64,000 nt of DNA, taken from assembly GCA_963793095.1 (NCBI GenBank), contig CAWBYY010000001.1:70431-134430 (forward strand). The letters are read 5' to 3'. Of this stretch, positions 4,579 to 35,881 are shown in pieces. Each line of letters begins with the position of its first letter. Within the stretch, counting starts at the first letter, position 1. The position numbers and the translations under genes were made by a program. Source of the stretch: an uncultured Chloroflexia bacterium (GTDB lineage Bacteria > Chloroflexota > Anaerolineae > Anaerolineales > UBA4823). The notes under the pieces are model-generated. The model did not search any database. It saw nothing but the letters and a program-made list of their open reading frames with translations, and was not told the origin of the DNA.

Positions 4579-6217
4579 TTATTCACCGAGTTTGTAAATC
4601 CTGACATACTCGAGGTTGTTGATCCAGACCGTATGCTCGGGCTGCCAGGATTTTATATACTCAAGCAGTTCAGCCGGCAGGTCGCGCTGCCACTGATGGA
4701 TGTAGATCACCAGGTAATCCGATTCCTCAAGCGTTTCCCAGTCAGCGGCGTTGAAAGTTCCGGTTCCGATATGCTCAGAATCTCCTTTGAAGAAGAAGGA
4801 GAAGGGCCCGTTCTGATACCAGGTGAACACATCCAGGTTCTGGGCGCCGTCTTTCTGGTTGAGGTAGATGGCAGCCTGGTCGAGGCCTTCGCCCCAGCCG
4901 ATCTGCATGACCCGGGGGGCAATGCGGCTCCCGCCCAGCAGGGGGTTGTAGTAAGCCAGGGAATAGGGGAAGATGCTGAGAGAAGACCAGGCCTGGAAGA
5001 AAACTAACCAGGACGAGGAGCGCCCCCGGGACGATCCTGGCGTAAAAAGCGGGCAGTCTCTCTTTCAGCCAGAGGGCGGCGGCGGTCCAGCCCAGGGCAG
5101 CGATGATATTGAGAGGGGCGTAGACCGGGAGCAGGTAGCGGTCGAACTTCTTGGAGCCCAGGTTCATCCCCAGGTAGAAGACGAGCACGGCGATCAGCAG
5201 GCCGAAGAGAGTGCGGCGGACGCCCGGCTTGGAGAAGAGCTCCTGTTTGGAAAAGAAAGCCCAGGCGGCGGCCAGCAGGCCGAGCAGGGTGGCCGGGGTG
5301 GTGCGCCACAGGTAGGTGAGGGGATAGAAGTAGAAGAAGCGCGGGCCTGAAATGCCGTCCGGGAAGACCTGGCCGTTGAAGAATACCGGCGAGCTGTGGC
5401 CTTCGGCGGCGTAGCCGCCTGCGGAGGCGAAAATTTCGAGCAGAACGCCGAGCGGGTTGACCCACATGGCGGGCCAGAGAAGCACAAAGACGGAGGCAGC
5501 CAGGAGCAGCCAGAGGGCGAAGCGCCAGGCGTAGCCCCAGAGCTGTTTGGGAAGGGCAGGGCTGGTATTCTTGCGGTAGGCGAGCCAGAGATCGAGCAGG
5601 AATAAGAGGGCTGCGGTGGGGAGCAGGAAGAAACCGGGCGATTTGGTGAGCCAGCACAGGCCCGCTGCGACGCCAGCGATGATAAGATCGTACACCCGGC
5701 GCTGAAAGAGGAAGGCGATGATAGCCAGGACAGCCAGCAGGTAAAGGCTGCTGAGCAGGGCGTCCAGGTGGAGCAGGCGCGCGAGGCCGAGCTGAAAGGG
5801 GTCGAAGGCGACCAGCAGGAAAGCGAGCAGGGCAGGCAGCCAGCCGGTCAAACGCCAGGAAAGCCAGAAAGCGAGCAGCAGCACAACCAGCTGGGCATAG
5901 CTCATAAATATCCTGGCAGAGACCAGGTTCGGGAGAGGCGTTTTTTCTACAACCTGCCTGAAGTAGTAGTCAACTGATTTATTTCGTCCAGGATCAGGGC
6001 TGGTTTCCCGGTATGATAAGTATTCCTTCAACATGCCCCCGCTGCCCAACCACATTACAGTCACCCCTGGATGGACGCTCTGGTAGGTCTTCCTGTAATC
6101 GCCCATCCTCAATGCCTTAAAAAACCCGCCCGACCGCTGCAGCCAGTTGTTTTCATCAATGGTTACCGCCCGGTTGAGGTCAAGGCGGCGCGGCAGCCAG
6201 ACCGCCCCGGCAACCAT
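4579..6217 (-). pseudogene. GT39 / ArnT-PMT-like membrane glycosyltransferase, copy 1, reading frame interrupted (3n+1)
   Basis: The N-part ORF 4775..6217 is polytopic and has a DE motif in the first loop (AVTIDENNW). The C-part lies in the +1 frame and includes track ORF 4579..4908. That frame is open from about 5060 and reads ...SIFPYSLAYYNPLLGGSRIAPRVMQIGWGEGLDQAAIYLN. After the shift, the 0-frame tail is Pro/Arg/Gly junk. The likely junction is at the short run 5000-5003 or 5023-5027. The start is uncertain: homology to copy 2 continues upstream of ATG 6217 with no in-frame ATG/GTG/TTG. Confidence 0.75.
4789..5889. repeat. near-identical 1.1-kb tract, copy A of the tandem GT39 duplication
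   Basis: It aligns base-for-base with 6583..7683 at offset 1794. By eye I found four mismatches (4902, 5229, 5572, 5780). The out-of-frame track ORFs are duplicated identically, for example 5396..5605 = 7190..7399. Confidence 0.9.
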
Positions 6218-6372: not shown

Positions 6373-8041
6373 TCAGTCCGGTACTTTGTAGATTTTGACA
6401 TACTCGAGGTTGTTGATCCAGACTGTGTGCTCGGGCTGCCAGGATTTTATGTACTCAAGCAGTTCAGCCGGCAGGTCGCGCTGCCACTGGTGGATGTAGA
6501 TCACCAGGTAATCTGATCCGGCGAGGGTCTGCCAGTCGCTGCTGGTAAAATCCCCGTCGCTTATTTTTCGTGAATTCCCTTCGAAGAAGAAGGAGAAGGG
6601 CCCGTTCTGATACCAGGTGAACACATCCAGGTTCTGGGCGCCGTCTTTCTGGTTGAGGTAGATGGCAGCCTGGTCGAGGCCTTCGCCCCAGCCGACCTGC
6701 ATGACCCGGGGGGCAATGCGGCTCCCGCCCAGCAGGGGGTTGTAGTAAGCCAGGGAATAGGGGAAGATGCTGAGAGAAGACCAGGCCTGGAAGAAAACTA
6801 ACCAGGACGAGGAGCGCCCCCGGGACGATCCTGGCGTAAAAAGCGGGCAGTCTCTCTTTCAGCCAGAGGGCGGCGGCGGTCCAGCCCAGGGCAGCGATGA
6901 TATTGAGAGGGGCGTAGACCGGGAGCAGGTAGCGGTCGAACTTCTTGGAGCCCAGGTTCATCCCCAGGTAGAAGACGAGCACGGCGATCAGCAGGCCGAA
7001 GAGAGTGCGGCGGACGCCCGGCCTGGAGAAGAGCTCCTGTTTGGAAAAGAAAGCCCAGGCGGCGGCCAGCAGGCCGAGCAGGGTGGCCGGGGTGGTGCGC
7101 CACAGGTAGGTGAGGGGATAGAAGTAGAAGAAGCGCGGGCCTGAAATGCCGTCCGGGAAGACCTGGCCGTTGAAGAATACCGGCGAGCTGTGGCCTTCGG
7201 CGGCGTAGCCGCCTGCGGAGGCGAAAATTTCGAGCAGAACGCCGAGCGGGTTGACCCACATGGCGGGCCAGAGAAGCACAAAGACGGAGGCAGCCAGGAG
7301 CAGCCAGAGGGCGAAGCGCCAGGCGTAGCCCCAGAGCTGTTTGGGAAGGGCAGGGCTGGTATTCTGGCGGTAGGCGAGCCAGAGATCGAGCAGGAATAAG
7401 AGGGCTGCGGTGGGGAGCAGGAAGAAACCGGGCGATTTGGTGAGCCAGCACAGGCCCGCTGCGACGCCAGCGATGATAAGATCGTACACCCGGCGCTGAA
7501 AGAGGAAGGCGATGATAGCCAGGACAGCCAGCAGGTAAAGGCTGCTGAGCAGGGCGTCCAGGTGGAGCAGGCGGGCGAGGCCGAGCTGAAAGGGGTCGAA
7601 GGCGACCAGCAGGAAAGCGAGCAGGGCAGGCAGCCAGCCGGTCAAACGCCAGGAAAGCCAGAAAGCGAGCAGCAGCACAACCAGGTGGGCATAGCTCATC
7701 CATATCCTGGCTGAGACCAGGTTTTCGAGCGGGTTGTTTATGATGCCCTGGTAGAATTCACGGTCTTCCAGTTTGTCTCCCAGTTTTTCAATTTTGCCTG
7801 TTTGGGATTGGTACTCCTGCAGCAACCCCCCGCTGCCCAGCCACATAATTGTGACCCCCGGGTGGGGGGCCCTGAAGGTCCTCTGGTAATCGCCCTGTTT
7901 TGTGAATATCAGAAATTTCAGGGAGCGCTCAAGCCACTTGATCTCATCGGTCGTAACCGCCCGGTTTAAATCCAAGCGGCGCGGCAGCCAGATTGCCCCC
8001 GCAATTAACAGGAGACAAACAAAGTACATTAAATACTTCAA
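6373..8041 (-). pseudogene. GT39 / ArnT-PMT-like membrane glycosyltransferase, copy 2, same frame interruption (3n+1)
   Basis: N-part ORF 6464..8041 (MKYLMYFVCLLLIAGAIWLPRRLDLNRAVTTDEIKW...) and C-part ORF 6373..6702 (MQVGWGEGLDQAAIYLN...). The architecture and frameshift position match copy 1, at an offset of 1794 bp. Confidence 0.8.
6583..7683. repeat. near-identical 1.1-kb tract, copy B of the tandem GT39 duplication
   Basis: See 4789..5889. Identity decays on both sides: 6373-6582 is only moderately similar to 4579-4788, and 7684-8041 versus 5890-6217 is diverged with indels. Confidence 0.9.
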
Positions 8042-17940: not shown

Positions 17941-19977
17941 CTAGGCTTTTTTTAGCTTTCTGAAAATTAGATAGCCTGCTATGGCAAGCCCAACCAGCAA
18001 GATTGCTGGAAGCACAACTGTCGGAAATAGAGCCAGCACCCGGACGTTTATTTTTTGAACGGCTGTGGTCACATTGCCCCTACCATCGTCAGCCTGCCAG
18101 GTGACCATGGTTATACCGGGTTTAAACAGTTGGTTTTCGGGCGCATCATTAGTGACCATAACCTCGCTGGCGCAGGCGTCATTTGCCGAGGCTTTCCCTA
18201 TATCAATATATACAGAATTTGTTCCGGGAGAGTAAATCTGGGTCTCGATATCAGCCGGGATTGTCAGGTCGGGCGCAACACTGTCGCCCACCTCAACATT
18301 AAAGTTGTCAACGTCAACCAGCCCATCGGTATCTTCGACGAGAAGAGATATGGCGTGTACACCGTATCCAAGCTGGTAAGGTTTGATTTCAACTTTGGCT
18401 TTACTGCCCCATAAGTGTTCGGTTGCAGTCCCGTAGTCTTCATACCATTCGAACTTCGGCAGGTTGGCAGGGGAGGGGGCGTAAACATCAAACGAACCTG
18501 CTGCGTTCAAATATACTGGTGTGGCGTTGGTGTTCTCCTGGCACTCCGCATACTTGGTTGACTCGATTCCGACTGCTTTTGGTGAGAAACTCACAAAGCG
18601 ACCTTCTAAATCCGGGATGATATCCATTTTCGCCGGCTGCCCGTTCAGGGTGATCGTCGTTTGAATTGTCCCGGAAATATCGAAAGTGCGCTTTATATGG
18701 TCGATGGAAATATCCAATGGTTTTACATTCTCAGAATTCCACAGCAGCGTTTTTCCGTCATGTTTGGCGCTTTCGGCGCCGATAAACTCGCCGGCCGGGA
18801 TCTGGTATGTATCACATGGCTGACCGAATACGGGTGAAGTATCGGTGCATTTTGCGGTGGGGTAATTCAACATGGCGACTTTATTTTCGCTGAAGGTCCC
18901 GATGTCGGTTTGAAATGGGGCGAGATTCAACAACATGCTTTGCAATTCCAAATCCATTGTTTGGGGGTGATAATCAAACTGGAGGTGTCCGCTGGCGCTG
19001 CTCTGGTACTGCTTGCCTTTTACATGAATGGCTGCTTTTGAAGGAGGAATAAATTCGATTTCAGAAGTCATTGGAGAGATTTTCAAAGCGCCCCCGGTCA
19101 GGGTGTGGGCAGATGCGCAGTCCATGATAAAAGTGCAGGTGATATTCCGGCATTGGTAAGGCCCTGCATTGTTGTTGCATAATTGTGTGGTTTTTGTTAT
19201 CGCTTCTGCTTCAGTAAAATAACAATCTTTGTGGGGCAGGGTATCCACTTTGTGGCCGATACTGCAGTTTGATTTCTGCTCGGGTTTGATAAAAACCAGA
19301 TACATGGCGCGGTTATCCAATGGGATATTCCCCCAGTCAGGGGAATCATAACTGTTCCCTTCTATGGTGACAATCTGGTTAGCAGTTGGTTTGACTTTTT
19401 TTCGCCAGACCTCAAGTTTTACAAATTGTTTGGGAACGCCGGGGCGTTTATCCAGCATCGAGATCACCAGATAGAGGGGCTGGTTGACCAGATCGTTCTT
19501 CACCTGCCAGTAATTTTTAGTCAGCCAATCAGGTTTTTGATTTGCCCTTGAATCATAGGCAATGTACAAATCCTCTATATCTTGTTTTGTTACGAAATCG
19601 AGAAAATCTGAGGCGGTTTCATCCCAATCATCAGCGCCTGTCATAATCAGGTGGGCGCCCTTCAATTCACTTACCTGGATATCCCAGATGTACACCTGTT
19701 GGTTCCAGTACACCTGATATGGTTCGTTTTCATTCTTCCAGACCTCCGGAATAACTTTATAATTTGAGATCTGAGGAAATTGGATTGAAGGCTGGATAGT
19801 TACGGTAAGCGGCTGGTTTGCCATCGGGCAATACCAGCGTTCTGCTTCGCATTCGTAGTACCATGACGTGGGTGGTATCCCGCTGGTATCGAATATGCAG
19901 CTGGAAATCGACCCTAACAGGATAATTAAAAATGCAGCCGGTAAAAATGTCAGACCCAGGACCAGATACTTCTTCAT
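17941..19977 (-). CDS. large exported surface protein, putative lipoprotein with C-terminal TM anchor and HYR-like Ig-fold segment
   Basis: The start ATG 19977 follows a strong AAGGAGG RBS. The signal peptide has a lipobox-like ISSC (MKKYLVLGLTFLPAAFLIILLGSISSC). The C-terminal hydrophobic anchor is FPTVVLPAILLVGLAIAGYLIFRKLKKA. The segment ...APDLTIPADIE...ANDACASEVMVTND...PGITMVTWQADDGRGNVT... resembles a HYR domain. Confidence 0.75.
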   Translation of the reverse strand: MKKYLVLGLTFLPAAFLIILLGSISSCIFDTSGIPPTSWYYECEAERWYCPMANQPLTVTIQPSIQFPQISNYKVIPEVWKNENEPYQVYWNQQVYIWDIQVSELKGAHLIMTGADDWDETASDFLDFVTKQDIEDLYIAYDSRANQKPDWLTKNYWQVKNDLVNQPLYLVISMLDKRPGVPKQFVKLEVWRKKVKPTANQIVTIEGNSYDSPDWGNIPLDNRAMYLVFIKPEQKSNCSIGHKVDTLPHKDCYFTEAEAITKTTQLCNNNAGPYQCRNITCTFIMDCASAHTLTGGALKISPMTSEIEFIPPSKAAIHVKGKQYQSSASGHLQFDYHPQTMDLELQSMLLNLAPFQTDIGTFSENKVAMLNYPTAKCTDTSPVFGQPCDTYQIPAGEFIGAESAKHDGKTLLWNSENVKPLDISIDHIKRTFDISGTIQTTITLNGQPAKMDIIPDLEGRFVSFSPKAVGIESTKYAECQENTNATPVYLNAAGSFDVYAPSPANLPKFEWYEDYGTATEHLWGSKAKVEIKPYQLGYGVHAISLLVEDTDGLVDVDNFNVEVGDSVAPDLTIPADIETQIYSPGTNSVYIDIGKASANDACASEVMVTNDAPENQLFKPGITMVTWQADDGRGNVTTAVQKINVRVLALFPTVVLPAILLVGLAIAGYLIFRKLKKA

Positions 19978-20258
19978 CTTAATCCTCCTTAAGTAAAATC
20001 GACCGCCAGCTGCGGTCGGGAAATTGTAATTCAATGAAATGTGATGTTATTCAATTACCCCCCTGGAGGTTCGGTTACCGCCGCAGGGGAAAATCCAGGC
20101 AGGATATGATTTAAAGCACATTATAATGCACAACAATCATTTTGCCAATATTTATTGCAGTTAGTTCGAGTACAGGTCGGGTTTGGATATTTATTTGATC
20201 AGGTTATTTTATTTTTCCCCTATAATATTTTCAATAACCAGAGAAGGAGAATGTTGAT

Positions 20259-22498: not shown

Positions 22499-23251
22499 GT
22501 GAAACTGGCTGCTTTTGATATCGAGATCGCGAAAGAAATCCCCAAAAACGCAAAGGAATGGGAAAAATATGAGCCGCTGGGTATCAGCTGTGCGGCGCTA
22601 GCTCTCAGCGATGGCAGCCAGGTGCGCTTCTGGAAGAATTTCCCCCAGATGGGACGGGCGGACTGCACACAACTGGTGGAAGATTTAGCTGGTTATGTTG
22701 AAAATGGGTACAGCCTCCTGACCTGGAACGGGTGCAAATTTGATTTTAATGTACTGGCCCAGGAGAGCGGGCTTTATGAGCGCTGCGCCCGGATGGCTCT
22801 GGACCATTATGACCTGATGCTCATGGTTACTTTCAGCCAGGGCCACTTTTTGAGTTTGCAGGCTGCTTTGGACGGCTCCGGATTGAAAGGAAAATTAAAA
22901 AGCGTGACTTTAAAGGACGGCCAGCTGCTAGCCGGAATGGATGGCTCCCAGGCTCCGCAGCTGTGGGCGCAAGGGGAATACGAGGCGGTGCTGGCCTATC
23001 TCAAGGAGGATGTGATGCAGCTCCTGGACCTTGCCCGGGTCACCGTTAAGAACAGAGCCCTGCGCTGGAAAAGCCGTTCGGGCAATTTGCGCAGGATGCC
23101 TGTGGAGCGGCTGTTGAGGGTGGGCGAATGTTTTAAGCTGCCCGAGCCGGATGTATCCTGGTTATCCCATCCGCCAAGCAGGGCTGGTTTTATCGACTGG
23201 ATGCCGGCTGAGGTCAGGGGATCCCTGAGCCGCCAATCAGGACGGATTTAA
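22499..23251 (+). CDS. RNase H-fold DEDDy-type 3'-5' exonuclease-like protein
   Basis: The motifs are AFDIE (Exo I), TWNGCKFDFNVL (Exo II) and AYLKEDV (Exo III YxxxD). The start is GTG. The functional call is by motif only. Confidence 0.55.
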   Translation: MKLAAFDIEIAKEIPKNAKEWEKYEPLGISCAALALSDGSQVRFWKNFPQMGRADCTQLVEDLAGYVENGYSLLTWNGCKFDFNVLAQESGLYERCARMALDHYDLMLMVTFSQGHFLSLQAALDGSGLKGKLKSVTLKDGQLLAGMDGSQAPQLWAQGEYEAVLAYLKEDVMQLLDLARVTVKNRALRWKSRSGNLRRMPVERLLRVGECFKLPEPDVSWLSHPPSRAGFIDWMPAEVRGSLSRQSGRI

Positions 23252-24429
23252 ATCAGAGCCAGCTGTTTGCCGACCTTTTCGAATGCAGACAGGACCTGAT
23301 CCAGCTGGGCGTCGGTGTGGGTAGCCATGTAGCTGGTCCGCAGCATCTGCCTGCCAGGCGCAACAGCCGGGGAGATAACCGCATTGACGAAAACGCCGCT
23401 GTCAAACAACATTTTCCAGGTGAAGAAAGTTTTAATGTCATCGCCAATCAGGATCGGGATGACCGGGGTTTCTGAATTGCCGGTATTGAAACCCAGCTTT
23501 TTATATTCATCCCGCATATAATCGGCAATCTGGTGCAACCTTTCAACCCGTTCCGGTTCAGTGCGCATAATTTCAAGCGCAGCCATCACCGCTGCGGTAT
23601 TGGAGGGAGGGATGCTTGCGCTGAAGATCAAGGAACGGGCGTGGTGTTTAATAAAATGGATAACCACTTCATCGCCGGCGATAAAGCCTCCCAGTGAGGC
23701 GAAGGATTTGCTGAATGTTGACATGATTAAATCCACATCGTCGGTCATATCAAAATGGGCAGCCGTACCGCGGCCCTGGCCCAGGACACCCATTGCATGG
23801 GCGTCATCAACCATCAGGCGGGCGCCGTAGCGTTTGCAGATGGGGATTAACTCGGGAAGCGGGGCGATGTCGCCTTCCATGCTGAATAAGCCATCAACAA
23901 CCACAAGTTTTGCCCTGTCCTCCGGGAGCCCTGATAACACCCTCTCGAGGTCCTCCATATCGTTATGGCGGAAGCGTTTGATCATCCCTCTGCTGAGAAA
24001 GGCCCCATCGACAATGCTGGCGTGATCGTCCTTATCCAGGATGATGATATCGTCTTTGCAGATCATCGCGCTGATTACGCCCAGGTTGACCTGCATACCG
24101 GTTGAAAAGATCAACGCCGCTTCTTTTCCAACCCATTCGGCGAGTTCTGCCTCCAGTTGTTCGTGCATTTCGAGGGTGCCGTTCAAGAAGCGCGAGCCGG
24201 TGCAGCTTGTCCCGAAAGTGTGGATCGCGTCGATGGCTGCCTGGCGTACCTTTGGATGGGTAGTCAGCCCCAGGTAATTATTCGAGCCGCACATAATAAG
24301 CCTTTGTCCCTGGAATTCCGCTTCGGTGCCTTCATTGCCGCTCAGCGGGATGAAATAAGGGTAGATCCCGGCAGCCATAGCATCTTTTGCGGCGGTAAAA
24401 CCTGTACATTTTTCAAATAAGTCCACCAT
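23248..24429 (-). CDS. alpha-oxoamine synthase, serine-palmitoyltransferase-like
   Basis: GSNNYLGLTTHP, GSRFLNGT, RFRHNDMEDLERVLSGLPEDRAKLVVVDGLFSMEGDIAPL, DDAHAMG and STFSKSFASLGG (PLP Lys) are present. As I recall them, the segments closely parallel Sphingomonas SPT. Confidence 0.85.
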   Translation of the reverse strand: MVDLFEKCTGFTAAKDAMAAGIYPYFIPLSGNEGTEAEFQGQRLIMCGSNNYLGLTTHPKVRQAAIDAIHTFGTSCTGSRFLNGTLEMHEQLEAELAEWVGKEAALIFSTGMQVNLGVISAMICKDDIIILDKDDHASIVDGAFLSRGMIKRFRHNDMEDLERVLSGLPEDRAKLVVVDGLFSMEGDIAPLPELIPICKRYGARLMVDDAHAMGVLGQGRGTAAHFDMTDDVDLIMSTFSKSFASLGGFIAGDEVVIHFIKHHARSLIFSASIPPSNTAAVMAALEIMRTEPERVERLHQIADYMRDEYKKLGFNTGNSETPVIPILIGDDIKTFFTWKMLFDSGVFVNAVISPAVAPGRQMLRTSYMATHTDAQLDQVLSAFEKVGKQLALI

Positions 24430-24537
24430 AATGTCACTCCTTATCAGCGAATAATAAAACTGTAAAAAATAAATAAAACAGTAATTATTGAAGACAGTTA
24501 AATCCCGATTACCAGTCTAAAAATATAATCCCAACGG

Positions 24538-25396
24538 TTAAGAGCCCGAGTCTGGAGGGTGTTCCTGGTTAGAGTTATCAATTTGCTTAATCGCCCTGTT
24601 ATGCAGCCAATCCAGGACAGGAAACACACCCTTGCCAAGGATATTGATCGATTTAAATATTAATTTCATCCCAGCATCCGGAATAATCACTTCCTGGTTT
24701 CGTTCGATCCCTTCAAGGATCTGGCGGGCTACTTTTTCCGGACGGTAACGGGTCAGTTGCAGGGACGAAATCAAGGATTTTTTTCCAGGCTTCTGGCTTG
24801 AACCTGTTCTCATATTCTAATTGGGGCGTATCCGTATCCGCTGGATAGACAATCGAAACATGGATGCCATGCGGTTTCAACTCCATGCGCAGGGCGTCAG
24901 AAAAACCGCGCAGGGCAAATTTGGAAGCCGCGTAGGCAGTGTAACCAATGACCCCGATTACAGCCATCATCGAAGCGATATTGACTATATGACCTGCCCC
25001 CCTTTCCAACATGCCCGGAAGCACTGCTTTGGTGAGGTTGACTGCCCCGAAATAATTCACATCCATCATCCAGTGGTAGGTTGCCAGGTCCAGGTCCCGG
25101 GTATAGCCGGGTTGGACCACCCCGGCGGAGTTGATGACCATATCAGGATACCAGCCGTTCTCTAAAAGCTGCCCAACGCTGCGGTTGACCTGTTCTTCAT
25201 TTGAAACATCTGTGGGGAAGGCGTAATGCTGGCCGGGATGGATTTTTTGAATTTCACTTAGGGCATTTTCCAGCTGGGGGATGGTCCGGGCAAAGATAGA
25301 AATATTAGCGCCTTCAGTTGCCAGCTGCCGTGAAAGTTCCAATCCAATCCCGCTGCTTCCCCCGCTTATCAGGACATTGCGGTCTTTAAATTCCAT
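24538..25396 (-). pseudogene. short-chain dehydrogenase, 3-ketodihydrosphingosine-reductase-like, reading frame interrupted at a 7-nt homopolymer (3n+1)
   Basis: N-part ORF 24713..25396 (VLISGGSSGIGLELSRQL..., YAASKFAL) and C-part ORF 24538..24813. Removing one base from the T7 run at 24778-24784 (A7 in sense) gives YPADTDTPQLEYENRFKPEAWKKSLISSLQLTRYRPEKVARQILEGI, which parallels the KDSR C-terminal region. Confidence 0.75.
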
Positions 25397-25431: not shown

Positions 25432-25803
25432 CTAAACATGCTGGTCTACAAGAATTGGATTTCCATCCGGGTCTTCAATGATAAAACTGGCCGGGCCGGT
25501 TGTGCTCTCATCCGCTTCGCTGATAAATTTCAGACCCTGCTCTTTGAGCAGGTGCTGCAGGTCGCGGATGTCTGTAAATTGATCCAGTTTATTGGTGTCG
25601 CTGTCCCACCCTGGATTGAACGTCAGTATATTCTTCTCGAACATCCCCTGGAACAGACCGATGGTGGTACCCATATTTTTTAATATCAACCAGTTCTGGG
25701 CCGGGTCGCCACCGAATACTTCAAAACCCAGTTTTTCATAGAATTGTCTTGAGGCTTCAATGCTTTTAACGGTCAAACTTATCGAAAATGCACCCAGTTC
25801 CAT
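25432..25803 (-). CDS. VOC (glyoxalase/bleomycin-resistance) family protein
   Basis: I moved the start to ATG 25803 ([29 protein letters not shown]...) with an AGGAGA RBS. The upstream extension in the track overlaps galK. Confidence 0.75.
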
Positions 25804-25813
25804 CTGTTTTCTC

Positions 25814-26980
25814 CTAAAGATAAAGCACACTGGCTCCCTGGCTGGGGCGGCAAAGATAAATCTGAGCCCTGAGGCCAGTGTCCTGGTAGTATTCTTCGCC
25901 AAGCCGGGCGATAAAATCTTGCTCGCTTTTTTCCTGAACGAGGTTTACTGTGCACCCGCCGAACCCAGCCCCGGTAAGACGGGCGCCGATGCAGCCCTCC
26001 AGATCCCGGGTAAGTTTAACGAGCGTGTCCAATTCGGGTGTGCTGACTTCGTACGAGTCACGCAGGCTGGCATGGCTGGCGTACATCAAGGCTCCGAAAA
26101 CCTGTTCATCGCCACGGTGAAGGGCGTTCAGGGCTGAATTTACCCGGGCGATTTCTTTAACAACATGTTCTGCCCTCATTCTTTCTATCCTGGGAAGGAA
26201 TTCACTGTAGGCGGCAAATTCAACCGGGGATATATCCCGCAGAGATTGGATTCCCGGAAGGTATTCCCGCAGATGCCTGACGGCGCTTTCACAGGAGAGG
26301 CGCCTATCATTGTACCCTGAAGAGGTCAAAGAACGGCGGACATTTGAGTCAGCGATAATGATACTCAGATAATCCGGAAGCGGGGCTGGCTGGTATTCCA
26401 GACTGCGGGTGTCAAAGTATAAGGCATGGCCTTCGACGCCGCAGGCGCTCGCAAATTGATCCATCAGACCGCAGGAAACCCCGACATATTCGTTTTCCGC
26501 CCGCTGGCAAATTTTGGCCATTTCGAGCGGTTCGATCTCCCAATCCTCTAAACCCTGCCAGGTGAAACCGAATCCTACTTCAACCGCAGCCGAGGAACTC
26601 AAGCCGGCGCCAATTGGGATGTTGGAACTGTACACTGCGTTGATCCCCTGAACATTCAAACCTGATTCGATAAGCGCCCAGGCGACTCCAGCCGGGTAAA
26701 ACGCCCAGGCTGGCAGCGGATTTCCAACCTCATCCACTTTATCGCTCAAATCAGCGATATTAATGACAGATTCCTGTTCAAGATCCACTGCGTACAGGCG
26801 GATTTTGTTGTCAGCGTTTCTCGAAGCGGCGATGTTGACCTCTCTATCGATCGCGACCGGCAGTACCGGGCCTTCGTTGTAATCGACATGTTCGCCGATC
26901 AGGTTAACTCTCCCCGGGGCGCGGGTAAGCAGGTAAGGTTGGTGAGAGAATTTATCCGTAAAAATGCTAATAATCTGCAT
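25814..26980 (-). CDS. galK: galactokinase
   Basis: [17 protein letters not shown] (galactokinase signature), the GHMP motif [11 protein letters not shown], and GAGFGGC are present. Confidence 0.9.
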
Positions 26981-27903: not shown

Positions 27904-29434
27904 TCAGCCTGTTATCCATAAGGCTGTGATGGTTAATATACTGACGAACACCACCAGAATAAGGGTATAGACTAGCAGTTTTCGTAAAATATCCCCTTCC
28001 CTGCCAGCCATGCCGGCAGTGCTTGCCCCAACCACCACCTTTGTTGGAGCGAGTATAGATGCCAGGGCTGCCCCGGCCGTCTGGGCGCCGAGGATAATCG
28101 CCAGCGAATATCCCAGTATTTCTGCTGTCCTTTTCTGTAATGGGCTGAATACGACATTCGAATTTGTATTGCTGCCGGTCATAAAAGCGCCCAGGGCTCC
28201 TATCCAGGGCGCCACCAGAGGATAAAGAGAACCAATCATTCCAGCCAATCCCCTGGCAAGGGTGTCGGTCATCCCGGCATGCTGCATAACCACAGCCATG
28301 GCTACCATTGAGGCGATGCTCACGCTGGAGGACATAACCCGCTTGACGGTGCCTTCCAGGATATTTTTTACAGAACCTTTCCCATACAGTCCAGCCCAGC
28401 GGTAAATGAAATATGCCAGGATTACGGAATAAAGCAGCAGCACACTGGTGTGGCTGAACAGTTTAAATGACCTGCCGGGACCGGCAGCCGTTGTATATCC
28501 TGCAGATGTGCTGACTTCAGGAAATAGGACCTGAATCTCTACCGCTCCCAGCCAGTTTTTGATCAGCGGGATGAGCTGGACCCCCAGTGTGATTATTATC
28601 AGAATCAGGTAACCGGAAAGGGCGATTATTAATCGCGCGCAGATCCAGTTTGCCGTCGACCTGGTTCCCTTTGCGGGTGCGCAGGGCAAGCGGTATGGCG
28701 ACCAGCAAACCCGCCAGGGCGCCGATGAATGATCCCAGGTACCAGGGCCCCGAAAGCACAACCACGACCATTACCGCGCCCATAACAGCACCTATCAGCA
28801 GTACTGCTGTAAAGGTGTGTTTTACGGCCTGCCAGCCCCCTGCGGCGTGGGCGACCATCAAACCAACCGGTATCGTACAGATTGCTAGAAAGAGCACAGC
28901 CGGCGGCGCCAGGAGTTGGGCAGAGAGGTTTGTGGCTGCCATCATTGCATTAAAAGATGAGCCCAGTGAACCGAAAGTCACTGCCCAACCATGACCAATT
29001 GAAGGGATAACCACTGCGGTTAGCGGCGAAAATCCAAGGCCTACCAGAATTGGGGCGATCACTGCCACCGGGACGCCAAATCCGCCGACCCCCTGCAAAA
29101 ATGAGGCGAAAACCCAGCCGATTAATAGAGCCTGCATAACCCGGTCTGGCGTCAGGTAGGGCAGGGCTGAACCGATGGTTTGAATTGCGCCGGCTTCGTC
29201 AGCCACCCGGTATAACAGAAACGCCGCCCAAATTATCAGGAGCACGTCAATAGTAAGGAGGAGTGCTTTTGCATGCGCATAGGCAAGCAGTTCGGGGCCG
29301 GCGCCAAAAAAGACCACCGCTATCAACAAAGCGCTCAAATATCCCACACCGCCGGCTCTGGCCGCTCCCCAGCGGAAGCCAACCATCAGAATCAGGATCA
29401 ACAAAATTGGCAGCGACGCAAGCAGAAAGTTCAT
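27904..29434 (-). pseudogene. L-lactate/glycolate permease (LctP family), reading frame interrupted (3n+1)
   Basis: N-part ORF 28517..29434 (…FLQGVGGFGVPVAVIAPILVGLGF…) and C-part ORF 27904..28761 (…GALGAFMTGSNTNSNVVFSPLQ…). The junction is near 28626-28640. The span of 1531 nt equals 3n+1. Confidence 0.8.
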
Positions 29435-34963: not shown

Positions 34964-35881
34964 ATGACCCAGAAGAGAGTGAAAGTTATTGTAAATCCAC
35001 AGGCTGATTTCGGATTTGCCTGGCAGGGTGCCGGCGCGCTTGAAAAGATCGCTGAGGAATTCTCCGGGATAGAATGGGCATACACAGAATACCCCCATCA
35101 TGCCAATAAACTCGCTTTCCAGGCTGGACTGGAGGGCTATGATATGGTGGTTTCGGTGGGCGGGGATGGGACAACCCACGAAGTCGTCAACGGATTGATG
35201 GAATTGGAAACTGCCAGTAGACCGGTTCTGGGTGTAATTCCGATGGGTTCCGGTAATGATTTTGCATTTGCCCTGGGTATGGACCCGGAGCCAGATGCAG
35301 CCTTCCGCCAGGTGATAAACGGGCAGATCAGGAAGGTGGACATCGGGCTGTTGAAAGACCAGTATGGGCGCAGCGAATATTTTACAAATGCTATTGGGAT
35401 AGGTTTCGATGCAACTGTAACCAATTATTTTCACAAAGTGAAATACCTGCGAGGCATCCCTGCTTACATGGCTGCAATTATCCAGACCCTGATCCTGCAT
35501 CACGATGCGCCTCGAATGCAGGTTAAGACAGATATGGAGCAGTGGGAAGAAGAATCGCTCATGTTTGTTATATGCAACGGCAGCCGGGAGGGCGGTGGTT
35601 TTCTGATCGCTCCAAGCTCGTTGCCTGATGACGGCGTTTTTCATTACGCCCGGGTGGTGAAAGTATCGCGTTTGATGATGCTCCGCCTGATACCTGAGGT
35701 AATGAAAGGCACTCATGAACGATTCAAGCAGGTACACTGCGGATATTTCCAAAGGATGGAATTAAATGCTGACCGGCCTCTCCAAATCCATACGGACGGC
35801 GAAATCTACGCTGGATTTGAGTCAACTATCCAGAAGGTCTCTGTTGAAATCCTGCCTGGAGAGATTGAGGTTGCAGCCTGA
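34964..35881 (+). CDS. diacylglycerol-kinase-family lipid kinase (YegS/BmrU-like)
   Basis: DAGK catalytic-domain motifs are VVSVGGDGTTHEVVNG and IPMGSGNDFA. The stop TGA overlaps the ATG of the next gene (TGATG). Confidence 0.85.
   Translation: MTQKRVKVIVNPQADFGFAWQGAGALEKIAEEFSGIEWAYTEYPHHANKLAFQAGLEGYDMVVSVGGDGTTHEVVNGLMELETASRPVLGVIPMGSGNDFAFALGMDPEPDAAFRQVINGQIRKVDIGLLKDQYGRSEYFTNAIGIGFDATVTNYFHKVKYLRGIPAYMAAIIQTLILHHDAPRMQVKTDMEQWEEESLMFVICNGSREGGGFLIAPSSLPDDGVFHYARVVKVSRLMMLRLIPEVMKGTHERFKQVHCGYFQRMELNADRPLQIHTDGEIYAGFESTIQKVSVEILPGEIEVAA

Follow-up and report, generated by a model that had tools for sequence, protein, structure and literature searches.

A 64,000-nucleotide stretch of contig CAWBYY010000001.1 from an uncultured member of the Anaerolineales (Chloroflexota), here called the window, carries two adjacent genes whose products are, as judged from their sequences, closely related to the pair of enzymes responsible for the sphingolipid backbone, i.e. 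an alpha-oxoamine synthase (AOS) resembling serine palmitoyltransferase (SPT) and a classical short-chain dehydrogenase/reductase (SDR) of the 3-ketodihydrosphingosine reductase (KDSR) family. The pair probably catalyzes the two reactions with which sphingoid-base synthesis begins in this bacterium. Both genes lie on the minus strand where a sequence-only reading of the window had placed them: the AOS gene, assigned from its open reading frame (ORF) and homology, is intact and encodes 393 residues (23248-24429), and the SDR gene (24538-25396), assigned from homology and alignment with orthologues, is directly upstream and co-directional, encoding 285 residues after removal of one base. The A+T-rich spacer of 108 nt that runs from the SDR stop to the AOS start (24430-24537, minus strand) gave no convincing promoter or terminator in a scan for such elements, with counts at chance level; an AAGGAG (24442-24437) precedes the AOS ATG by 7 nt.

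The AOS scores best, among NCBIfam models, with SPT-CFB (NF047600, Bacteroidota-type SPT; 538.3 bits), which is 140 bits over any non-SPT model, the values for TIGR01825 (BioF/Kbl-related), bioF, KBL, ALAS and CqsA being 398, 384, 355, 254 and 212 bits, respectively. The margin is similar to that of a genuine SPT used for calibration, the E. coli Spt, which gives 599 bits on its own subgroup model versus 333 on bioF. A search of the PDB with the AOS likewise returned S. multivorum SPT (SmSPT) first (437 bits, E = 5e-130), with the Thermus BioF/KBL enzyme (284 bits), Sphingomonas SPT (283 bits) and the cysteate acyltransferases CapB (247 bits) and SulA (245 bits) lower in the ranking; identity is 52% to SmSPT over 387 residues, 42% to E. 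coli BL21 Spt, which has been studied experimentally, and 39% to Thermus BioF/KBL. A crude neighbour-joining tree, one of those built here without support values and used descriptively only, places SmSPT as the sister of the whole Anaerolineae AOS clade relative to Thermus KBL. The proposal made from the sequence alone, that the AOS groups with SPT and not with Kbl or BioF, is thus borne out, and the motifs quoted in its favor, KRFRHNDMEDLERVLSGLPEDRAKLVVVDGLFSMEGDIAPL, FSKSFASLGG and VNAVISPAVAPGRQMLR, are all present in the protein.

The active-site residues point in the same direction. The lysine predicted to form the Schiff base with pyridoxal 5'-phosphate (PLP), Lys241, is within the sequence TFSKSFASLGG; it and the PLP-holding residues His136, Asp208 and His211 align without gaps with their SmSPT counterparts. 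The residues that bind the amino-acid carboxylate are kept, i.e. Asn50/51 in GSNNYLG and Arg364 in LRTSYMATH (N53 and R376 in SulA numbering). Spt and SulA enzymes have been distinguished by a single position, which is Ala in Spt and Lys (K281) in SulA (PMC9304779). The AOS has Ala271 here, 30 residues past the Schiff-base lysine (a spacing shared by SulA and SmSPT), which by alignment makes it an Spt-type residue rather than the SulA-type lysine. The structurally characterized SmSPT (PDB 3A2B/8GUH; Bacteroidota/delta-proteobacterial SPT subgroup, NF047600) is thus the closest known counterpart of the AOS, with which it shares its length, the PLP-lysine motif, the His/Asp/His set, the Asn and Arg residues and the Ala at the SulA-Lys position; both are also soluble, stand-alone enzymes with no dedicated acyl carrier protein (ACP) gene nearby. 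They differ in that the AOS comes from another phylum, the Chloroflexota, and scores 538 bits on a model whose cut-off is 640.

The repaired SDR is 38% identical to human KDSR (NP_002026.1, a reference confirmed by exact look-up) over the 226 residues of the catalytic domain (pairwise E = 3e-50), and in phmmer comparisons it gave 147 bits with human KDSR, 61 bits with E. coli FabG and at most 99 bits with any PDB protein. With a family profile built from 40 members, human and Acanthamoeba KDSR scored 251.4 and 252.9 bits, compared with 160.3 bits for the best of 177,635 PDB sequences, 142.4 bits for fungal TSC10 and 115.2 bits for E. coli FabG; the SDR therefore groups with KDSR and not with FabG-type reductases, in agreement with the sequence-only reading. 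The 150 best matches among 1.84 billion representative sequences were all KDSR-like (96-280 bits to human KDSR), and one of them stands for a cluster containing Acanthamoeba KDSR. Many relatives of the SDR carry the label '3-dehydrosphinganine reductase' from the JGI pipeline, the search that returned these labels having used a wrongly repaired SDR C terminus (approximately 20 residues affected; result unchanged).

The motifs of a classical SDR are present (SGGSSGIG at 11-18, NSAG at 89-92, Ser142, Tyr155 and Lys159; Pfam adh_short, 168 bits), as is an Arg (Arg37) after strand beta-2 of the type associated with NADP. More specifically, residues 184-201 and 219-226 align with residues 214-231 and 247-254 of human KDSR (YP(P/A)DTDTP....EN..KP and PE.VA.QI), and within the first of these segments P185, T190 and P201 are invariant, and D187, T188, D189, P191 and K200 nearly invariant, in the 40-member alignment. 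Most of the SDR motifs read from the letters alone are in the protein (GGSSGIG at 12-18, YPADTDTP at 184-191 and PEKVARQI at 219-226); the exception is 'IS', which occurs only in a wrong frame, the true protein having IL.

The eukaryotic KDSR/FVT1 enzymes (human NP_002026.1; Acanthamoeba XP_004340338.1) are the best-scoring characterized relatives of the SDR and have in common with it GGSSGIG, the Arg after beta-2, the Ser-Tyr-Lys set and both C-terminal motifs (YP.DTDTP....EN..KP and PE.VA.QI). The N- and C-terminal transmembrane anchors of the endoplasmic reticulum enzyme are lacking in the SDR, which begins six residues before its first beta-strand and has 285 residues compared with 332; in its AlphaFold model (pLDDT 91) the C-terminal region is a single long helix (241-278) rather than two transmembrane segments. 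It further differs from the eukaryotic enzymes in being encoded in an operon with an SPT and in being frameshifted in the window. B. thetaiotaomicron BT_0972 (NF049977, KdsR), likewise a bacterial classical SDR and proposed to catalyze the same reaction after SPT, belongs to another SDR subfamily and is not adjacent to spt; the model for its type was not among the 25 best models for the SDR (lowest 113 bits; cut-off 400), and human KDSR itself scores 109.7 bits on it. Nor is the SDR of the CerR/Epi type, being a classical adh_short protein and not an extended SDR of the NAD-dependent epimerase/dehydratase kind.

The association of the two genes extends beyond the window. When GTDB species were scanned, each represented by a single genome, at least 592 AOS relatives were recovered, of which the best 80 loci, all from Anaerolineae, were analyzed. 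In 28 of the 80 species loci an SDR gene is immediately upstream of the AOS gene on the same strand, and in four more it is 2.2-2.35 kb upstream; six are too short to tell. In a crude tree the types of AOS context are lineage-specific and the SDR-AOS arrangement is dispersed over the clade. A natural fusion of an AOS and a KDSR-like SDR (744 residues), the AOS part of which is 39% identical to that of the window, was found in a metagenome. It is one of four fusions within the KDSR-like clade (P0326, P0289, P0297 and P0312), the others joining the SDR to an AMP-binding (acyl-activating) enzyme in a Chloroflexota metagenome-assembled genome (MAG), to an MFS transporter, and, in a protein from Chlamydiae, to a FAD/ALO oxidase.

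In some relatives the pair is part of a larger cluster. Four loci (L047, 6955-11179; L059, 6954-11182; L041; L086) have a four-gene, same-strand cluster of an SDR, a YghO/bCerS-like GNAT-type protein, an epimerase/HpnA-like extended SDR and an AOS. In L047, neighbouring genes overlap by 4 bp at two of the junctions and are separated by 18 bp at the remaining one; the GNAT-type and epimerase-family proteins of L047 have 378 and 329 residues. The former is 38% identical to E. coli BL21 YghO over 383 residues (E = 3e-87), the bCerS and CerR reference sequences used being taken from the cluster that PMC9386255 names in E. coli BL21. YghO is a homologue of Caulobacter CC_1154, an acyl-CoA N-acyltransferase now called bCerS (Padilla-Gomez et al.). 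The epimerase-family neighbour (family F8) is 33% identical to BL21 Epi, a CerR homologue, over 178 residues, and its best model is HpnA (324 bits versus a cut-off of 368). Clusters of the L047 type hold two different reductases within one putative ceramide operon. In 21-23 related loci, a YghO/bCerS homologue is found no more than 10 kb from the AOS.

Other AOS contexts recur among the related loci. In Brevefilum-type loci (L010, L013, L023, L043, L057 and others) the AOS gene lies between opposite-strand genes for lipoprotein-like proteins of approximately 290 residues with a concanavalin/laminin-G domain, and a YghO/bCerS homologue is the next gene upstream. In Bellilinea-type loci (L027, L034, L042, L051 and L056) it is flanked by a ROK-family kinase/regulator gene on one side and on the other by a gene for DegV (fatty-acid-binding), the latter being another lipid-related neighbour.

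On the basis of homology and the conserved active-site residues, the AOS would bind L-serine as the external aldimine at the PLP-bearing Lys241 and catalyze its decarboxylative condensation with a long-chain acyl thioester to give 3-ketodihydrosphingosine. Since no dedicated ACP or acyl-ACP synthetase gene is nearby, the acyl donor is probably acyl-CoA or a housekeeping acyl-ACP. The SDR would then reduce the 3-keto group to give sphinganine, employing Ser142, Tyr155 and Lys159 as predicted catalytic residues and, as Arg37 suggests, with a preference for NADPH. By analogy with the related loci, subsequent N-acylation to dihydroceramide may be catalyzed by a YghO/bCerS-type acyltransferase encoded outside the window. 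The eukaryote-like order of these steps, i.e. reduction before acylation, would follow from homology only.

Several observations weigh against this assignment. The AOS is under the curated NF047600 equivalog cut-off (538 versus 640 bits), from which it follows that it stands as sister to the curated set of Bacteroidota SPTs rather than within it, and that its substrate specificity could differ. When the PDB was searched with the SDR sequence by itself, the result was not discriminating (TSC10 ranked 29th), and the profile search brought TSC10 only to rank 3; Foldseek comparison of the SDR model with the PDB gave generic SDRs, HSD17B13 first, without resolving the family. The bacterial KDSR-like clade is broad, and its fusions with MFS and FAD oxidase domains imply that not all of its members serve sphingolipid synthesis. 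No SDR gene is present within 10 kb of the AOS in 42 of the 74 informative species loci. In the window, no homologue of YghO (bCerS), AcpR or AasR was found, and the BL21 Epi query had no match; the earlier remark that no ceramide synthase, ACP or acyl-ACP synthetase gene is adjacent is accordingly correct, and it is in related Anaerolineae that a YghO/bCerS homologue is next to the same AOS. Neither for this organism nor for any cultured member of the Anaerolineae did the literature searched contain biochemical or lipid evidence. Finally, the SDR gene is broken in the deposited sequence.

As sequenced, the SDR gene reads as two overlapping ORFs, 24713-25396 (227 residues) and 24538-24813 (91 residues). 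Alignment with orthologues locates the break at a single extra base at 24742 (coding-strand T, CCG[T]CCGGAAAAAG, minus strand), which is absent from L001-L003, three independently assembled sequences of near-identical strains (99% DNA identity); the upstream frame is correct through ...KPEAWKKILDFVPATDPLP, and the correct reading across the break is ...ENRFKPEAWKKILDFVPATDPLPPEKVARQI.... The frame repair of the sequence-only reading had been made elsewhere, probably at the A7 run at 24778-24784; deletion of one A from that run is ruled out by the intact orthologue, which puts the break at 24742. The SDR is intact, at 285 residues, in L001-L003 and on a short contig (L004); L006 and 32 species loci likewise have it intact. 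The window and L001 share 13.2 kb, over which there are 119 substitutions and only two frame-breaking indels, the T at 24742 and a G at 28634. The latter is an extra G in a GCGCGC[G] run and, relative to L001, splits a lactate permease gene (27904-29434, minus strand), which in L002 is broken differently, by a 29-bp deletion (28961-28989). The presence of a second single-base break in a conserved permease gene 4 kb away favors an assembly error, which we regard as more likely than a true pseudogene.

The alternative that the SDR gene is a genuine pseudogene in this strain, the second step being lost or taken over by another reductase, is the likeliest of the competing explanations, but we consider it improbable. 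It draws on the position of the frame break in the deposited sequence, outside any homopolymer, on the truncated 227-residue product (P0123) carried by the source record, a 473,341-bp NCBI/ENA contig, and on the excess of non-synonymous change in the SDR gene compared with its neighbours; relative to L001, 12 non-synonymous and 11 synonymous codons differ in the SDR gene, compared with 18 nucleotide differences and one amino-acid change in that for the AOS. However, throughout the family the SDR changes more rapidly than the AOS, so the non-synonymous pattern alone is no sign of decay, and the ratio of non-synonymous to synonymous change is still well below neutral. The break in the permease gene and the intact SDR in all four near-identical assemblies and the 32 species loci likewise argue against gene loss.

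A second alternative accepts both assignments but reverses the later steps. In the Caulobacter order, the AOS would give 3-ketosphinganine, a bCerS/YghO-type enzyme would N-acylate it, and the SDR would reduce the resultant oxidized ceramide, thus being a functional analogue of CerR. The step order is still debated even for Caulobacter, and the occurrence of a YghO/bCerS homologue beside the AOS in related Anaerolineae, sometimes with a 4-bp overlap with the SDR gene, is compatible with this proposal. When the locus is compared with the Caulobacter/E. coli BL21 ceramide cluster (spt, acpR, aasR, epi/cerR and aca/bcerS (= yghO)), the AOS is related to BL21 Spt, and relatives place both a YghO/bCerS homologue and an epimerase-family reductase beside the AOS, whereas the window is without AcpR, AasR and YghO, and its AOS-adjacent reductase is of the classical KDSR type and not an extended-SDR CerR. 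Given that the closest characterized relatives of the SDR, the eukaryotic KDSRs, act on the free base, that CerR/Epi belongs to a different (extended epimerase) SDR type, and that the presence of both reductase types in the four-gene clusters speaks against their being simply redundant, the Caulobacter order appears unlikely.

It is less likely again that the AOS accepts another amino acid or acyl donor (e.g. alanine, glycine or cysteate) and so initiates synthesis of a 1-deoxy base, a sulfonolipid precursor or another amino-alcohol. The sub-threshold score on the curated SPT model and the acceptance of alanine by Spt enzymes would allow this, as would the sulfonolipid pathway (SulA/CapB plus 3-ketocapnine reductase), which follows the same logic of AOS condensation and then SDR reduction of a 3-keto group. 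The AOS, however, has the Spt-type Ala271 in place of the diagnostic SulA lysine; SulA and CapB score approximately 190 bits below SmSPT (245-247 versus 437 bits); no cysteate synthase gene is nearby; and bCerS homologues accompany the AOS in some members of its clade. That the adjacency is incidental, the AOS being a housekeeping KBL or BioF (its family is named '8-amino-7-oxononanoate synthase' by JGI) and the SDR an unrelated oxidoreductase, is very improbable, because the AOS misses both housekeeping cut-offs (bioF TIGR00858, 384.5 versus 426.45 bits; KBL NF005394, 355 versus 460 bits), the pair is conserved and also found fused, no biotin genes were among the recurrent AOS-neighbour families in the 80 loci (no search being aimed at biotin genes), and the two Zn-dependent alcohol dehydrogenase (ADH) genes nearby, which could recall threonine dehydrogenase (Tdh), itself of the Zn-ADH family, score 174 and 119 bits against a Tdh cut-off of 380, which rules out a KBL-Tdh pairing.

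Spt-like genes in Chloroflexota are themselves already known. In 2024, Ding, von Meijenfeldt et al. described them in 218 Chloroflexota MAGs and observed that ceramide abundance in the Black Sea correlates with Anaerolineae (PMC11334938), and a 2025 follow-up repeats the prediction of sphingolipids in the Chloroflexota, which the locus described here fits. The 2024 survey screened only for bCerS and CerR besides Spt, and KDSR is not mentioned in its text (PMC11334938); metagenomic surveys have so far been confined to Spt, bCerS and CerR. The only characterized bacterial KDSR is BT_0972, which is approximately 16-30% identical to eukaryotic KDSR and unlinked to spt, and 3-ketocapnine reductase genes likewise lie scattered within their respective genomes. 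In the literature searched, no spt-KDSR operon in bacteria is described, and no paper joins Anaerolinea thermophila and ceramide. What the locus contributes is a eukaryote-type KDSR that shares an operon with spt, joined in some relatives by bCerS.

This arrangement bears on the debate as to whether bacteria reduce and then acylate, as eukaryotes do and as proposed for Bacteroides BT_0972, or acylate and then reduce, as with Caulobacter CerR. A KDSR-family reductase in an operon with spt, in approximately 40% of Anaerolineae species, provides a clonable pair with which the step order can be tested, and the SDR is a candidate for the 'missing' reductase of abundant sediment and wastewater bacteria, as well as a marker gene for environmental screens. 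The results also correct the public annotation, in which the AOS family carries BioF or generic aminotransferase labels and the SDR a generic one. It is conceivable, although we would not presume it, that Anaerolineae, and perhaps other anaerobic phyla with Spt-like genes lacking a nearby bCerS or CerR, employ a eukaryote-type KDSR encoded in the spt operon as the dedicated second enzyme. If so, eukaryotic KDSR would be one branch of a large bacterial KDSR-like radiation, the second step of the eukaryotic pathway would, like the first, have a bacterial root, and the clusters with both KDSR-like and epimerase-like reductases would give each a different job.

With respect to other genes in the window, the links to lipid metabolism that the sequence-only reading had tentatively drawn for a galactokinase and a kinase of the DAGK family did not hold, since neither is conserved outside the closest relatives. 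The galactokinase gene and a small glyoxalase-fold gene (25432-26980, minus strand) are co-directional and just upstream of the SDR gene, with gaps of 10 and 35 bp, and their synteny with it is confined to the three closest lineages (L001, L006 and L008). The other kinase, encoded at 34964-35881 (plus strand), is a YegS/BmrU-family lipid kinase with DAGK_cat and YegS_C domains, scoring above the cut-off of TIGR00147 (141 bits). YegS/BmrU kinases belong to the same superfamily as the eukaryotic sphingosine and ceramide kinases; none of the related loci has a YegS-type kinase near the AOS. Downstream, the AOS gene converges with a plus-strand gene for an RNase-H-like/PolB-exonuclease-like protein (22499-23251), the 3' ends sharing 4 bp (23248-23251). 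Further away, a predicted membrane-anchored protein of 697 residues (17941-20034, minus strand) had no Pfam match and is called at 627 and 678 residues in near-identical assemblies, and two adjacent paralogous ORFs (4775-6217 and 6464-8041, minus strand; 480 and 525 residues) have the N-terminal motif AIWLPRRLDLNRAVT in common.

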